Shown: in pieces, positions 43,900 to 47,108 of the stretch | Numbering within the stretch: the first letter of the stretch is position 1 | Layout of the letters: each line of letters opens with the position of its first letter | Assembly: GCF_000026545.1 (NCBI RefSeq) | Contig: NC_011601.1 | Origin: Escherichia coli O127:H6 str. E2348/69 | GTDB lineage: Bacteria > Pseudomonadota > Gammaproteobacteria > Enterobacterales > Enterobacteriaceae | Reading direction: 5' to 3' (one strand) | DNA length: 64,000 bases | Notes under the pieces: generated by a model | What the model was told of the DNA's origin: nothing | Seen by the model: only the letters and a program-made list of their open reading frames with translations | Databases searched by the model: none | Program-made: the position numbers and the translations under genes

Positions 43900-44856
43900 T
43901 TATTTGATTTGATAATCGATGGACAAGCTGTACCCCTGCACGCCATCATCGCCGAGAGTAAGGCTGGAGCTGTTGAATGCAGTACCCGCTTCGGAGTTGG
44001 TTGCCGGAATAACCAGTGCAGTGTTGTTCCAGGTATCTTTAACCACACCACCCGCAGTACCGTGCGCGCTGGTGCCGGAGAAGCGCCAACGGTAGTCGTA
44101 CTGGCTGGTAACATCCTCGCCTGTATCAACTTTGTTGTTGTTGTTCGCATCAGAGTACAGGATGACACTGTAGGAGGTTTTCGTCGCCAGAATGTCCGTA
44201 GTACCCAGCAGGTTTTTCTTATTAGTGTCATCTGTTTTGTAAATAACAACTTTCACATTGTTATCAACAACCGGACCGGCTGGGATATCATCGCTTGCAG
44301 AACCACCACCATCACCAGAACCGGAACCATCACCTGTGCCATCACTGCCACCGGAACCATCATTGTCACCCGGACCATTAGTAATATCTGCCAGCGTCAA
44401 CTCTGCACCCACAGCCGGAATACCGGTCGCGGTGGTAGGGGTAATTTTGATACCAATTTTTTTACCCGCATCAGCGCTGGTGAGGGTATAAGTTTCGCCT
44501 TCGGCTCCGCTAATTTCCTGACCATTACGCAGCCACTTAATGGTAGCTTTGGTCGACGCATCATTAGCATCGGTATCGCCTTCAGCATCAGCGAGTCCCC
44601 AATGTACCGTCACTTCATCACCAACAGCCAGTTGTGCTGTTGATTTGCTGCCACCGCGTTTTGCACTAATACTAACGTGGTGATCAACAGGTGTCGCGGA
44701 AGTGTCCTGAATCCACGGTACCGTACTGTTAATTGCGCCAGTACTCTCGGTCACAGTGGTCCATGCTGCAGATGCAATTGCAGGAATGGCACAATACCCC
44801 GCAACAGCCAACGCCAGCACAACCTTTCTTAAATTACGATTACTTTCCAGTTTCAT
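43900..44856 (-). CDS. sinI: SinI-like exported protein (318 aa)
   Basis: Signal peptide; Gly/Ser/Asp-rich linker; C-terminal domain shared with SinH-like protein. Confidence 0.45.
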   Translation of the reverse strand: MKLESNRNLRKVVLALAVAGYCAIPAIASAAWTTVTESTGAINSTVPWIQDTSATPVDHHVSISAKRGGSKSTAQLAVGDEVTVHWGLADAEGDTDANDASTKATIKWLRNGQEISGAEGETYTLTSADAGKKIGIKITPTTATGIPAVGAELTLADITNGPGDNDGSGGSDGTGDGSGSGDGGGSASDDIPAGPVVDNNVKVVIYKTDDTNKKNLLGTTDILATKTSYSVILYSDANNNNKVDTGEDVTSQYDYRWRFSGTSAHGTAGGVVKDTWNNTALVIPATNSEAGTAFNSSSLTLGDDGVQGYSLSIDYQIK

Positions 44857-44903
44857 TACTACTATCTCCTTGGTTACCCTTCAGCCACAGCCATATTGCA
44901 TTG

Positions 44904-47108
44904 CTACGCTGATTTTTGCTTTTCGCTATAAACCACACGAATCCCATATCCCTGCACGCCATCACGCTCCTCTGCATCAAATTTCGATGCGGCTTCCTTG
45001 TTGGTGGCTGGTAGAATCAAATCCTCATTTATCGTATTCGCTTTCGCGCCAGTAGAACCGTGTGCGCTTTTACCTGTAAATTCCCACTCATAGTCGTAAC
45101 GCGCTTTTTCTTCTTCAGTCAGTTTTTCCGACTGCTGATAAATGCCATCGTTATTGGAATCACGCCACATCACGAAACGATAACCAGATTTCAGAGGGAT
45201 CGGTTTTGCATCACCGGCAAGATTTTTCGGGCTGCTTTCCTCAAGCCGATAAATAAAGCCATTAATGCCGCCAACATTTGCAGTGTTGGTAAAAGTAACA
45301 TCCACAAAGTTCGAGTCGCTATACGGTTCCGCCTTCACTTTCCAACGGAAAGTCCCCGGCAGCGTACTGGATAAGGTAATAGTGCCCTTCTCTTTATCGC
45401 GCTTAGCAATGAAGACACACGGTGTTTCAGTGACGCAGGGTTTGGTGTTCAGCGTCACTTTCTTGTCGTTTTCATCGTACAGTGTCGGTGTCACCCCTGT
45501 TTCAGGTAAGGTGTTCCCGTTTTTGTCAGTGTTATCACCAAAACTGTCAGTGATATGCATATCCATGACAACACCATCGCTGCCATCGGCTTTGGCTTCC
45601 GCTTGATAGCTGTGATTGTTATCCGCAGGGACACTGAGAACATGGTTAACAATCAGTTCGATCTTACGATCCTGTTTCACCACAATTTCGACGACACCTG
45701 AGTTTTGGCGGTTACCTTTCTCATCTTCCAGTGCAAGGCGCACACGCCAGGTATTAACCTTCTCTTGCTCTTCTTTGGTTGATGCACTTTGCCAGGCCGG
45801 CAGTACCAGGTTCCAGCGGTTGTTATTACCTTCCGTCAGTGCATTCGCTTTCACAACAGGCATGACTAACGTGCGGTTAGCATTATTTTTCGCCTGCCAT
45901 GATGCCGCGACGATTTTGTAGTGGTTATTAATGAGAGCGTTAATCGTCCACTTGCATTTTTCCAGACCTACGGCCAGCTCCGGTGTATCTTTTACGATAC
46001 ATTCTGGATGTTCATTCGCAGTATCGGCTTTCAGCCACAGCGTCACATCAAGCGGATCTTGTTCACGATATTCCAGAACAATGAAATTATTACGTTCCAC
46101 GAAGTCATGACGACTACCCATTAACGAATGTTTAGCTTTAACATTGTCAGGATCTAATTGATCCTTCAGTGGCATACCTATCTGATAATTTAGGGATACA
46201 TTGACACTTAAATCAGAATTATCACCCGTACCGGATTTATAATCTGAACCTACGGTAAATAGCGGCACAGGGTTATACATTAATCCGACGGTTAACGCCT
46301 GGGGATTTTTTTCCAGGTTATCGGTGCCGAATAGCGCAACTTCATCACCGTAATATTGTTCGTAAACCAGCTTTGCACCGAACTGCGGCCATGCTGGCAA
46401 CCACCCTTCAGCCCGGACATCCCAGCCGCGCGCTGGTCGTTCTTCGTAAAAGTCGAAATCTTTTGAATCTTTCCAGTCTGAAAGTGGATGGTAATAGTTT
46501 CCGGAAAACTTCAGATAGTCGGTCCAGGCTTCGCTACCCAGCCCCAAGCGACGATGACCGCGAGTAAAGTCATAGTCATAAAACAGGTTGCCGCCAAGCA
46601 ACCAGCTACCAATGTTCTGGCGTACACCAACCCCAATGTTACCGATGGTTCGGTCGTCTTTACGTTGTGCAGAGAACTGGCTGAAAACGAGTGTTTCCTG
46701 GTTATCATACCAGGGGACAAAGTAGTCAAAAGTGCTGCCATCCAGGTCGCCACCTTCTCCTATAGACAAGCTGGTTCTGACAGAACCATAAGGCGACAAG
46801 ACGTTCTCAAGATAAGACTGAGCAGTGGACGTCACCTGCTCTTTCGCATAGCTTTCAGCCTGAGCCTTCAGGGCCTCGGGCGTTAGATTTTCAAAACCTT
46901 GCGTGGCGGAGCTTATAAAATAACCCTGAGCTTTACCGCCTAAAGCACCTTTTTCATCTTTGCTGTTTGATTTTTCACTACTACCTAAATCAGGAAGTGT
47001 ATTAGGGCTATCAGTAGAACTGATATTTGTTGGTTCCACCTTTCCTTCTGATGCCCATGAAGCACTTGCCCATATAATAGAAAAAAGCACTGGAGACCAA
47101 CGCAACAT
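44904..47108 (-). CDS. sinH: Intimin/invasin-family inverse autotransporter (SinH-like, 734 aa)
   Basis: Signal peptide, intimin/invasin-type beta-barrel region, then repeat domains. Confidence 0.65.
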   Translation of the reverse strand: MLRWSPVLFSIIWASASWASEGKVEPTNISSTDSPNTLPDLGSSEKSNSKDEKGALGGKAQGYFISSATQGFENLTPEALKAQAESYAKEQVTSTAQSYLENVLSPYGSVRTSLSIGEGGDLDGSTFDYFVPWYDNQETLVFSQFSAQRKDDRTIGNIGVGVRQNIGSWLLGGNLFYDYDFTRGHRRLGLGSEAWTDYLKFSGNYYHPLSDWKDSKDFDFYEERPARGWDVRAEGWLPAWPQFGAKLVYEQYYGDEVALFGTDNLEKNPQALTVGLMYNPVPLFTVGSDYKSGTGDNSDLSVNVSLNYQIGMPLKDQLDPDNVKAKHSLMGSRHDFVERNNFIVLEYREQDPLDVTLWLKADTANEHPECIVKDTPELAVGLEKCKWTINALINNHYKIVAASWQAKNNANRTLVMPVVKANALTEGNNNRWNLVLPAWQSASTKEEQEKVNTWRVRLALEDEKGNRQNSGVVEIVVKQDRKIELIVNHVLSVPADNNHSYQAEAKADGSDGVVMDMHITDSFGDNTDKNGNTLPETGVTPTLYDENDKKVTLNTKPCVTETPCVFIAKRDKEKGTITLSSTLPGTFRWKVKAEPYSDSNFVDVTFTNTANVGGINGFIYRLEESSPKNLAGDAKPIPLKSGYRFVMWRDSNNDGIYQQSEKLTEEEKARYDYEWEFTGKSAHGSTGAKANTINEDLILPATNKEAASKFDAEERDGVQGYGIRVVYSEKQKSA

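Follow-up and report, generated by a model that had tools for sequence, protein, structure and literature searches.

SinH, an inverse autotransporter, and SinI, the barrel-less protein encoded directly behind it in Escherichia coli O127:H6 str. E2348/69, end in homologous C-terminal modules, and SinI further has a short mature N-terminal leader in common with the RatA-like giant adhesins encoded downstream. We tentatively propose, at slightly less than an even chance, that SinI depends on SinH for its transfer across or onto the outer membrane and stays with the SinH passenger as a co-adhesin or extension. The C-terminal similarity itself restates a published observation, described by Heinz 2016 (PMC4943183; the relevant passage cites Kingsley 2003 for the SinI similarity) and by Goh 2019 (PMC6714894), and the shared module is therefore a known feature of the pair. 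New are the EF-hand-like loop, the fold of the module, the age of the duplication, the architecture of SinI and the leader common to RatA-like proteins.

The operon and its products

The window, i.e. the whole stretch of 64,000 nucleotides that was analysed (contig NC_011601.1), contains a sinH-sinI-ratA-like operon of the CS54 / 'ila' island type in a rare and divergent allele, which is nearly full-length in just 7-8 of 5426 complete E. coli genomes. Both the sinH and the sinI reading frame lie where the first-pass annotation had placed them, and the C-terminal strings it quoted are correct; in sequence the locus is 100% identical to that of E2348/69, and the RefSeq gene names agree. The features of the locus are as follows:

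44904..47108, minus strand: sinH, 734 aa, intimin-like inverse autotransporter (ORF, NCBIfam inverse_SinH, RefSeq name)
43900..44856, minus strand: sinI, 318 aa, SinI family autotransporter-associated protein (ORF, NCBIfam partner_SinI, RefSeq name)
41508..43790, minus strand: RatA-like 'adhesion domain-containing protein', third gene of the operon (Pfam and NCBIfam matches)
41458..41477, minus strand: terminator-like hairpin followed by a T-run, 30 nt past the RatA-like stop (consensus scan)

Only 47 nt separate sinH from sinI, whose ribosome-binding site (AAGGAG) is found 8 nt upstream of the gene. The consensus scan, which is based on pattern matching only, reported no terminator-like site in the sinH-sinI or the sinI-ratA-like gap; the hairpin behind the RatA-like gene is a plausible end of the operon, and co-transcription of sinH and sinI is mentioned in PMC12525524 with reference to Shea 2022. 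SinH is the sole outer-membrane barrel encoded in sinH-sinI operons, and the present operon has no other exporter gene. The RatA-like protein comprises 760 aa, counted from the RefSeq start, in comparison to ~1850-3000 aa in related loci; besides a signal peptide, it carries the leader motif TTGKLNGTPP as well as two BIg21 + InvE_AD repeats (Pfam, NCBIfam). The same family and gene order are known from SinH/SinI (SivH/SivI) of the Salmonella CS54 island and from E. coli IatB/EcSMS35_2660 ('ila'), loci which are likewise flanked by xseA and have a RatA-type gene downstream. Identity of the E2348/69 proteins to their counterparts in other Escherichia species, Citrobacter, Superficieibacter and Leminorella is only 43-48% for SinI and ~62-70% for SinH.

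SinH is an inverse (type Ve) autotransporter, as the first-pass annotation had supposed, whose barrel lies N-terminally and whose Ig-like passenger lies C-terminally, and it reaches 1397.5 bits against the NCBIfam equivalog model inverse_SinH (NF033423, cutoff 999). Its barrel belongs to the same IAT_beta family as those of intimin and invasin, whose passengers likewise are chains of Ig-like domains. The following parts can be distinguished:

46086..46907, minus strand: IAT_beta outer-membrane barrel, aa 68-341 (Pfam PF11924, E 1.7e-107)
45276..46085, minus strand: proximal passenger, aa 342-611, approximately Ig-like domains 1-2 of Xing 2023 (PMC9937491)
44919..45275, minus strand: C-terminal shared module, aa 612-730 (BLASTP, NCBIfam cross-match)
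45126..45161, minus strand: EF-hand/DxDxDG-like 12-residue loop DSNNDGIYQQSE, aa 650-661 (pattern match)

Residues 342-611 of SinH are without a Pfam match, and the last 135 aa are modelled by AF2 with a mean pLDDT of 85.7. The shared module of SinH is the equivalent of 'Ig-like domain 3 / SinH-3', the vaccine antigen defined as SinH residues 602-724 (PMC9937491).

SinI scores 280.2 bits against NCBIfam partner_SinI (NF040711, cutoff 165), its residues 7-315 covering model positions 2-299 of 299, and it also has the further traits of the family, namely a place directly downstream of a SinH-type gene, a signal peptide and the lack of a barrel. Along the chain we found:

44770..44856, minus strand: Sec-type signal peptide, aa 1 to ~29 (read from sequence)
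44707..44769, minus strand: mature N-terminal leader, aa 30-50, containing TESTGAINSTVPW (motif and HMM)
44407..44685, minus strand: N-terminal Ig-like domain, aa ~58-150, a repeat of the AIR9-A9 / SCAB1-Ig type; the ZirU_fam-matching region
44263..44406, minus strand: disordered Gly/Ser/Asp linker, aa 151-198 (AF2 pLDDT, alignments)
43903..44262, minus strand: C-terminal shared module, aa 199-318 (BLASTP; AF2)
44116-44151, minus strand: EF-hand-like loop DANNNNKVDTGE, aa 236-247 (pattern match)

The signal peptide consists of a basic n-region, a hydrophobic core and an AxA motif (AIA/ASA), with the cleavage site placed by eye. Pfam finds IAT_beta in SinH and none in SinI, which is also devoid of a canonical lipobox. 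In the AF2 model two beta-sandwich domains are separated by a disordered stretch (residues 145-196, pLDDT <50), and the C-terminal one (residues 200-318) reaches a pLDDT of ~90; a Foldseek search with the whole model gave only generic two-Ig or FN3 matches. Sequence, Pfam and AF2 thus bear out the description of SinI in the first-pass annotation as a protein with signal peptide and Gly/Ser/Asp linker, lacking a beta-barrel. The linker, ~20 residues longer in E2348/69 than in other aligned SinI proteins, is closed by a conserved hinge, DDIPAGPV (aa 189-196; family form DDIPxGPV), in which D, P, G and P are invariant in the alignments. As modelled, SinI is composed of leader, A9-type Ig domain, disordered acidic linker with hinge and Ig-like C-terminal domain.

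The shared C-terminal module and its age

BLASTP of SinI against SinH, a pairwise alignment of the kind proposed in the first-pass annotation as a check, run with composition-based statistics, yields one significant alignment (SinI 204-318 / SinH 618-730; 41/119 identical, 34%; 54% positives; E 2e-20), which rules out the outcome that the similarity is not significant. The alignment extends the shared module to ~115-120 residues, about double the ~65 aa originally assumed. The profiles cross-match both ways: against the NCBIfam SinH model, SinI 199-316 aligns to positions 612-728 (E 1e-18), and against the NCBIfam SinI model, SinH 624-727 aligns to positions 196-299 (E 1.5e-20). Chance or composition as the source of the similarity has a practically negligible probability; the low-complexity linker does yield spurious PDB matches, and nothing else favours such an origin, but the aligned region lies outside this linker, and besides the two-way profile matches 11 columns are invariant over 48 module copies.

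The module models as a generic Ig-like sandwich. From the 'same terminal binding domain' suggested at first, the related terminal module stands, whereas 'binding' was an assumption, given so generic a predicted fold. A C-type-lectin-like tip as in intimin and invasin was considered and dismissed, the modelled module being Ig-like and having no lectin-like fold. PDB sequence searches with SinI, the SinI family profile and the module profile returned GS-linker fusion artefacts or matches of E >0.1, and no solved relative of SinI or of the module was identified by sequence in the PDB. A word-indexed search with the module profile for other architectures returned only SinH and SinI fragments. Among the 150 matches listed for the full-length SinI profile against 1.8 billion representatives, giant proteins with the N-domain repeat dominate and SinH-type proteins are absent; these giants swamped the search, so SinH-type matches fall outside those listed.

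In each module, Asp or Asn occupies positions 1, 3 and 5 of a 12-residue loop that has Glu or Asp at position 12. Of the 48 module copies, 45 conform to D-x-[DN]-x-[DNS]-x(6)-[ED], the SinH and SinI loops included, and the distant SinI-like partners, as read from their sequences, fit this pattern likewise. The strict PROSITE-style rule for positions 8/13 is followed incompletely by the module loops. Binding of calcium by these loops may be presumed from their pattern.

The module was present in both SinH and SinI at every one of the 24 sinH-sinI loci recovered across Enterobacterales (Escherichia, Citrobacter, Superficieibacter, Leminorella, Rahnella, Ewingella, Hafnia, Buttiauxella, Lelliottia), and adjacency of the two genes is kept in these 24/24 loci as well as in two distant ones, spanning several Enterobacterales families. 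Mean identity amounts to 56% among the SinI copies of the module and 47% among the SinH copies; conservation of the SinI copy, which is no lower than that of the SinH copy, suggests to us that it is under selection. Between SinH and SinI the modules are 30-50% identical within one genome (mean 38%) and 36% between genomes. Judged by their sequences, the two modules are ancient paralogues that go back to an old duplication. Recent gene conversion between sinH and sinI was rejected, the longest shared DNA word being 15 nt and the sole blastn match an 18-nt one at the DGVQGY motif, and so was concerted evolution in the Escherichia/Citrobacter clade, where the modules are about equally identical within and between genomes. 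Same-genome identity rises to 40-50% in the Rahnella/Hafnia clade, though not above the best cross-genome values there. More distant SinI-like proteins directly follow IAT_beta proteins in a different genomic context; in these pairs the IAT C-terminus and the partner module have only short motifs in common, so a shared module is perhaps not required for the pairing of inverse autotransporter and partner.

The mature N-terminal leader

A leader with the consensus LKSGQWQ-x5-STGxIxGTxP opens the mature chain of SinI, of the RatA-like giant adhesins and of the Big_2/lectin-like third-gene proteins downstream of SinH. Of 1065 ORFs, 33 contain its motif, [STA][STAG]G.[ILV].[GSN][TNS].P, each time at aa 28-59, and all 33 carriers are SinI, RatA-like or third-gene proteins (shuffled sequences average 0.62). 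An HMM trained exclusively on SinI leaders picks up RatA N-termini (E 3e-9 to 3e-3); the RatA-like protein of E2348/69 matches this HMM weakly (E 0.25) and matches the regular expression. Third-gene proteins have the entire SinI N-region up to the hinge (E 1e-21 to 1e-24), whereas an HMM of this region found no match of E <0.01 in RatA-like proteins; at the level of sequence, it is the short leader alone that is demonstrably common to SinI and RatA. At a threshold of E<=0.1, Pfam shows no domain, of two-partner secretion or any other kind, in the N-region of SinI or the first ~220 residues of the RatA-like protein. In the AF2 model of SinI, residues 31-40 have a pLDDT of 91 and are located ~150 residues away from the well-modelled C-terminal module. 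The leader is possibly a common export or docking signal, or it could be just a first strand that was inherited along with a common fold.

What SinI may do

Having a signal peptide but neither a barrel nor a canonical lipobox, SinI would need an exporter. The closest likeness is offered by Salmonella ZirT/ZirS/ZirU, which like SinH/SinI combine an inverse-autotransporter-type barrel with Sec-dependent, barrel-less Ig-fold proteins encoded after it; ZirS and ZirU, as SinI does, resemble the Ig domains of the transporter itself, and the gene arrangement is of the same ZirTSU-like kind. Secretion of ZirS needs ZirT, and ZirS is released into the medium (PMC2270342); ZirS and ZirU both are reported to be secreted in a ZirT-dependent manner (PMC4943183). 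PMC4943183 and PMC6714894 already proposed that the SinH barrel takes SinI as a substrate in the manner of ZirS/ZirU. By this analogy the 'secreted partner' of the first-pass annotation is plausible, and both the NCBIfam name 'autotransporter-associated protein' and the common leader fit SinI as a partner of SinH. Orthology is another matter: SinI residues 65-199 reach 37.1 bits against the ZirU family (NF040485, cutoff 100), and since this score is below the cutoff and falls on a widespread Ig repeat, SinI is not a member of the ZirU family and the match is no evidence of orthology. Two third-gene-type proteins likewise match ZirU_fam below the cutoff (25-34 bits), ZirS and ZirU were not returned by the profile search with the SinI N-region, and beyond sub-cutoff matches an NCBIfam scan of ten candidate proteins gave no families other than SinI and SinH.

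Classical two-partner secretion (FhaC/FHA, TpsB/TpsA) also works with a separate transporter and Sec-exported partners which have an N-proximal recognition element, for which the leader plus the N-region would here be the candidate; this is a likeness only, and SinH, with an IAT_beta barrel and without an Omp85 or POTRA domain (Pfam), does not belong with TpsB. A bolder scheme, which we consider doubtful, would be a type Ve 'two-partner-like' assembly system made up of SinH, SinI and the RatA-like adhesin, with the ~20-residue leader as targeting or docking signal and the module turning SinI into an adaptor. In such a system every barrel-less protein encoded after SinH would have a dedicated leader signal, the leader might be a donated beta-strand completing an Ig-like module, and the duplicated tip module, stabilised by calcium, would let SinI link SinH to further subunits.

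Other roles have to be weighed against export by SinH. SinI might be a periplasmic accessory, a chaperone or plug-release factor that binds the SinH passenger or the RatA-like protein by Ig-Ig contacts without being displayed itself. Periplasmic Ig-fold proteins often chaperone other Ig-fold proteins, recognition of Big domains in the periplasm has been proposed (PMC4943183), and a signal peptide with neither anchor nor barrel would suit such a resident. The biofilm function of SinH, moreover, is independent of SinI: its orthologue IatB gives biofilm without the downstream protein (Goh 2019, PMC6714894), so SinI is dispensable to SinH for this phenotype. Nevertheless, we regard a periplasmic role as rather unlikely, because the long acidic disordered linker and the conserved tip-type domain with its calcium-type loop would seem more adhesin-like, because giant RatA-like adhesins, themselves improbable residents of the periplasm, bear the same leader, and because ZirS and ZirU are secreted rather than retained (PMC4943183, PMC2270342). 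The module could also be the mere record of the old duplication within the operon, in a SinI that acts independently of SinH and is exported, if at all, by other means. The near equality of SinH-SinI identity within and between genomes, the lack of conversion at the DNA level and the distant pairs without a clearly shared module would agree with this, but the adjacency kept throughout, the co-transcription mentioned in PMC12525524 and the lack of any other exporter in the operon speak against it and leave it unlikely.

A free soluble decoy, competing for the ligand of SinH or absorbing antibodies against the SinH tip, had been suggested in the first-pass annotation as well and gained no specific support. 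The homology of the two tip domains, the release of ZirS into the medium (PMC2270342) and the immunogenic and protective nature of SinH-3 (PMC9937491) would be in line with it; however, modules with 30-50% identity within a genome do not assure a common ligand or common epitopes, nothing in the SinI sequence hints at release, and a decoy leaves unexplained why RatA-like and third-gene proteins have the SinI-type leader and the latter even the N-region. We hold it to be very improbable.

Export with the help of SinH, followed by association with its passenger, accommodates these observations best, in our still tentative view. SinI would be exported by Sec and transferred across or onto the outer membrane in dependence on SinH, in the way ZirT serves ZirS and ZirU; the RatA-like adhesin, bearing the same leader, would take the same SinH-dependent route. 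SinI would then remain associated with the SinH passenger and provide the surface complex with a second, flexibly tethered copy of a probably calcium-stabilised tip domain, i.e. act as a co-adhesin or extension and not as a decoy, whatever ligand the tips might bind. Passage of a partner through an inverse autotransporter barrel has been called a 'Gordian knot' (Heinz 2016, PMC4943183): the 12-stranded barrel is already filled by its own linker, an obstacle to passing a second protein. Biofilm formation by IatB in the absence of the downstream protein (PMC6714894) also counts against this reading. The literature searched contained no experiment placing SinI outside the periplasm, bound to SinH or to a host ligand, or dependent on SinH for export.

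SinH is a leading ExPEC vaccine antigen, and its protective SinH-3 fragment is exactly the module that is duplicated in SinI, a protein with zero occurrences in text searches of the vaccine paper (PMC9937491). Should SinI be exposed on the surface or set free, it could contribute additional epitopes or absorb antibody. Beyond this, how inverse autotransporters could export separate partner proteins is a question posed in type V secretion (Heinz 2016, PMC4943183), and a defined leader on SinI and RatA-type giant adhesins would provide a concrete element for mutation studies.

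The sinH-sinI island and its annotation

Over 41100-47400 the window matches the E. coli E2348/69 (EPEC O127:H6) chromosome with 100% identity, and our own domain scans agree with the RefSeq annotation of the island, in which the three genes listed here are accompanied by a zinc-ribbon protein gene, likewise on the minus strand, and by xseA, which, unlike the rest of the stretch, is not on that strand:

41508-43790, minus strand: adhesion domain-containing protein (RatA-like)
43900-44856, minus strand: SinI family autotransporter-associated protein
44904-47108, minus strand: sinH, intimin-like inverse autotransporter SinH

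With 1397.5 bits SinH clears the cutoff of 999 set for the NCBIfam SinH equivalog, and Pfam locates its IAT_beta barrel at residues 68-341; SinI reaches 280 bits against the NCBIfam SinI subfamily model (cutoff 165), and no barrel was detected in it by the Pfam/NCBIfam scans. The same databases give the RatA-like third protein two BIg21 plus InvE_AD units, and it aligns with the RatA and RatB models over their N-terminal parts; with two repeat units and only 760 aa it stands beside proteins of about 1850-3000 aa with many repeats in other genera. The sinH stop and the sinI start, which has an AAGGAG site of its own, are 47 nt apart, no terminator-like site was reported in the sinH-sinI or sinI-ratA-like intergenic gap, and a hairpin with a T-run lies 30 nt 3' of the RatA-like gene. 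Co-transcription of sinH and sinI is stated in a 2025 review (PMC12525524).

This sinH-sinI-ratA allele (41100-47400) is rare: megablast recovers it nearly full-length from just 7 of the 5426 complete E. coli genomes, and even a 'distant' blastn with sinI hit no more than 57, for the most part in the final 13-43% of the gene. Upstream of sinH, 47109-47950 is AT-rich (GC 0.32-0.42 vs about 0.47-0.50 in genes), and the remnant of an IS4 transposase gene, frameshifted, lies within it at about 47568-47833; an HTH regulator follows at 47959-48558, and just outside the island (49065-50847) RefSeq places a protein with a nucleotidyltransferase domain and the Hailong anti-phage effector HalA. In E. 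coli strain E69, a GTDB representative (L013:7403-10360), sinH is split into a 230-aa and a 488-aa ORF about 800 bp apart and is probably disrupted, with sinI and ratA intact.

The C-terminal module of SinH and SinI

The similarity between the two C-termini is real and statistically solid: SinI 204-318 aligns with SinH 618-730 at 34% identity and 54% positives (BLASTP, E 2e-20, the sole significant alignment), and the NCBIfam SinH and SinI models cross-match reciprocally over this stretch (E 1e-18 and 1.5e-20), so that chance resemblance is effectively refuted. The first-pass annotation had proposed a shared module of about 65 aa; the relationship and the strings it quoted stand, but these strings cover the last ~65 residues only of a homologous unit of about 115-120 residues, which reaches the end of SinI and leaves no more than four residues beyond it in SinH. 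The similarity was already known and the genes already annotated, Heinz et al. 2016 (PMC4943183) describing SinH as similar in sequence to the downstream barrel-less SinI and crediting Kingsley 2003.

Scanning one genome per species, we found 24 loci with a SinI relative (in Escherichia, Citrobacter, Superficieibacter, Leminorella, Rahnella, Ewingella, Hafnia, Buttiauxella and Lelliottia); at all 24 the gene immediately upstream encodes a SinH homologue, and the module is present in both products (24/24). The resulting 48-copy alignment, with 11 invariant columns, served as input for a model of the last 135 residues of SinH, which form a beta-sandwich with two short helices (mean pLDDT 85.7, pTM 0.78). 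An intimin/invasin lectin-like tip was considered and rejected: none of the top 60 structural matches is an intimin, invasin or C-type lectin entry, and the model therefore points to a generic Ig-like domain with no close solved relative. The SinH copy is the SinH-3 vaccine antigen, for which Xing 2023 (PMC9937491) gives residues 602-724.

Within the module lies a 12-residue loop, DSNNDGIYQQSE in SinH (45126-45161) and DANNNNKVDTGE in SinI (44116-44151), whose pattern D-x-[DN]-x-[DNS]-x6-[ED] fits 45 of the 48 copies; by analogy with EF-hand/DxDxDG loops we infer a putative structural calcium site. A 14-residue variant, DKAGGTxDxYDxGE, takes its place in some Citrobacter and Salmonella SinI alleles. 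As read from the sequences, the loop also occurs (DVDGNKNIDPGE and DTNGDNEFTTGE) in more distant partners, SinI-like proteins of 344 and 349 aa whose genes directly follow those for IAT_beta proteins (894 and 937 aa) beside cvpA-purF:

L027:3204-7035: distant IAT and SinI-like partner
L028:3093-7050: distant IAT and SinI-like partner

These partners retain the module (E about 1e-11), to which their IATs are similar in short motifs only: WSLxGxNTxA and G-x-QG-[FY]-x-L are common to the C-termini of IAT and partner. The pairs may be of the Sodalis SG0602/SG0603 type mentioned by Gal-Mor 2008 (PMC2270342).

Identity between SinH and SinI modules averages 38% within a genome and 36% across genomes, with averages of 56% among SinI and 47% among SinH copies, and the longest DNA word common to the window's sinH and sinI is 15 nt; neither comparison gives any sign of gene conversion between the two genes. 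Judged from sequence, the duplication is old, and both copies appear to be maintained by selection.

SinI anatomy and a leader common to proteins encoded after SinH

The family alignment and an AF2 model (mean pLDDT 70.9) divide SinI as follows:

aa 1 to about 29: Sec-type signal peptide
aa 30-50 (window 44707-44769): conserved mature N-terminal peptide, the leader (pLDDT 91 at residues 31-40)
about aa 58-150: Ig-like domain (pLDDT 64-86)
residues 145-196: disordered Gly/Ser/Asp linker (pLDDT below 50), ending in the hinge DDIPxGPV
aa 199-318: C-terminal module (pLDDT about 90)

Alignment, model and domain scans thus bear out the signal peptide, the linker and the missing barrel noted earlier. 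D, P, G and P of the hinge are invariant in the family. The E2348/69 linker (44293-44376, GPGDNDGSGGSDGTGDGSGSGDGGGSAS) is about 20 residues longer than in 33 aligned homologues of other lineages; the sole other long one, in the closest relative (P0002, 81% identical), is 7 residues shorter. Cys22 (44791-44793), inside the signal peptide, does not vary among 35 homologues; its context is the lipobox-like L-F-V-G-C-S in the Rahnella clade and the non-canonical A-G-Y-C in the E. coli clade; some lineages may have a lipoprotein form of SinI. In the AF2 model aa 31-40 (44737-44766) form beta-bridges at residues 33-34 and 42-43 among neighbours with pLDDT below 50; on this prediction the segment must pack on one of SinI's domains and may supply the first strand that the C-terminal module lacks.

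The SinI mature N-terminus (consensus GNLKSGQWQxVxESTGTIQGTVPW) recurs in RatA-like giant adhesins as ALKSGTWQxVxxSTDAINGTxP, matched in the window by TTGKLNGTPP (43650-43679), and a leader of about 20 residues, LKSGQWQ-x5-STGxIxGTxP, opens the mature chain of SinI, of RatA-like giant adhesins and of barrel-less third-gene proteins encoded after sinI. A ten-residue leader pattern occurs in 33 of the 1065 ORFs of these loci (0.62 in shuffled sequences), always at residues 28-59 and always in one of these three families. This pattern was composed after the sequences had been seen; a search with an HMM trained on SinI leaders only, which is less circular, matched RatA N-termini at E 3e-9 to 3e-3 and no other family below E 0.02. 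No description of the leader was found in the literature searched, and Heinz et al. 2016 (PMC4943183) call the Rat N-terminus highly divergent.

RatA-like proteins have only the leader in common with the SinI N-region; the third-gene proteins share all of it up to the hinge (E 1e-21 to 1e-24). They replace RatA at 5/9 loci of the Rahnella/Ewingella/Hafnia/Buttiauxella/Lelliottia group and, at 355-388 aa, combine a Big_2 domain with a lectin-like C-terminus that contains Cys, an arrangement reminiscent of an intimin-like tip (Ig plus lectin) mounted on a SinI chassis. Such a protein follows sinI at six loci:

L019:7547-8692
L024:10931-12037
L016:10962-12029
L017:1758-2864
L022:11331-12497
L023:5234-6328

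The hosts are Rahnella sp. AA, R. laticis, Ewingella, Hafnia, Lelliottia and Buttiauxella sp. A111; the order is SinI leader, N-domain and hinge, then Big_2, then the Cys-containing domain, with weak FGE-sulfatase/Lcl_C-type matches.

Possible roles of SinI

Secretion of ZirS needs Sec and ZirT (Gal-Mor 2008, PMC2270342), and Heinz et al. 2016 (PMC4943183) proposed that SinH, ZirT-like, is a translocase for co-encoded substrates, Rat-like proteins included. Goh et al. 2019 (PMC6714894) repeated the ZirT-type analogy for IatB and EcSMS35_2660 and left the transport question open; they observed biofilm from IatB without the downstream protein. The likeliest reading, which we hold tentatively, makes SinI a SinH-dependent partner: it would be handled in a SinH-dependent manner, would end up associated with the SinH passenger and would add a second tip domain on a flexible tether, and RatA-like proteins would take the same leader-dependent route. 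Against this stand the topology problem of exporting a protein through an IAT barrel that is already filled, and the possible origin of the leader as just the inherited first strand of a fold.

That SinI is a purely periplasmic accessory seems unlikely. An independent paralogue with no functional link to SinH is somewhat less probable again. The decoy suggested in the first-pass annotation as an alternative to a secreted partner, read as a released protein, we consider improbable. No report on SinI localisation or function was found in a literature search whose coverage of key papers was incomplete.

What the present analysis adds is how far the module really extends, that its SinH copy is the SinH-3 antigen, that it contains a calcium-type loop and, most importantly, that SinI and RatA-type adhesins have a leader in common; with these details the published "IAT as translocase" hypothesis can be tested directly.
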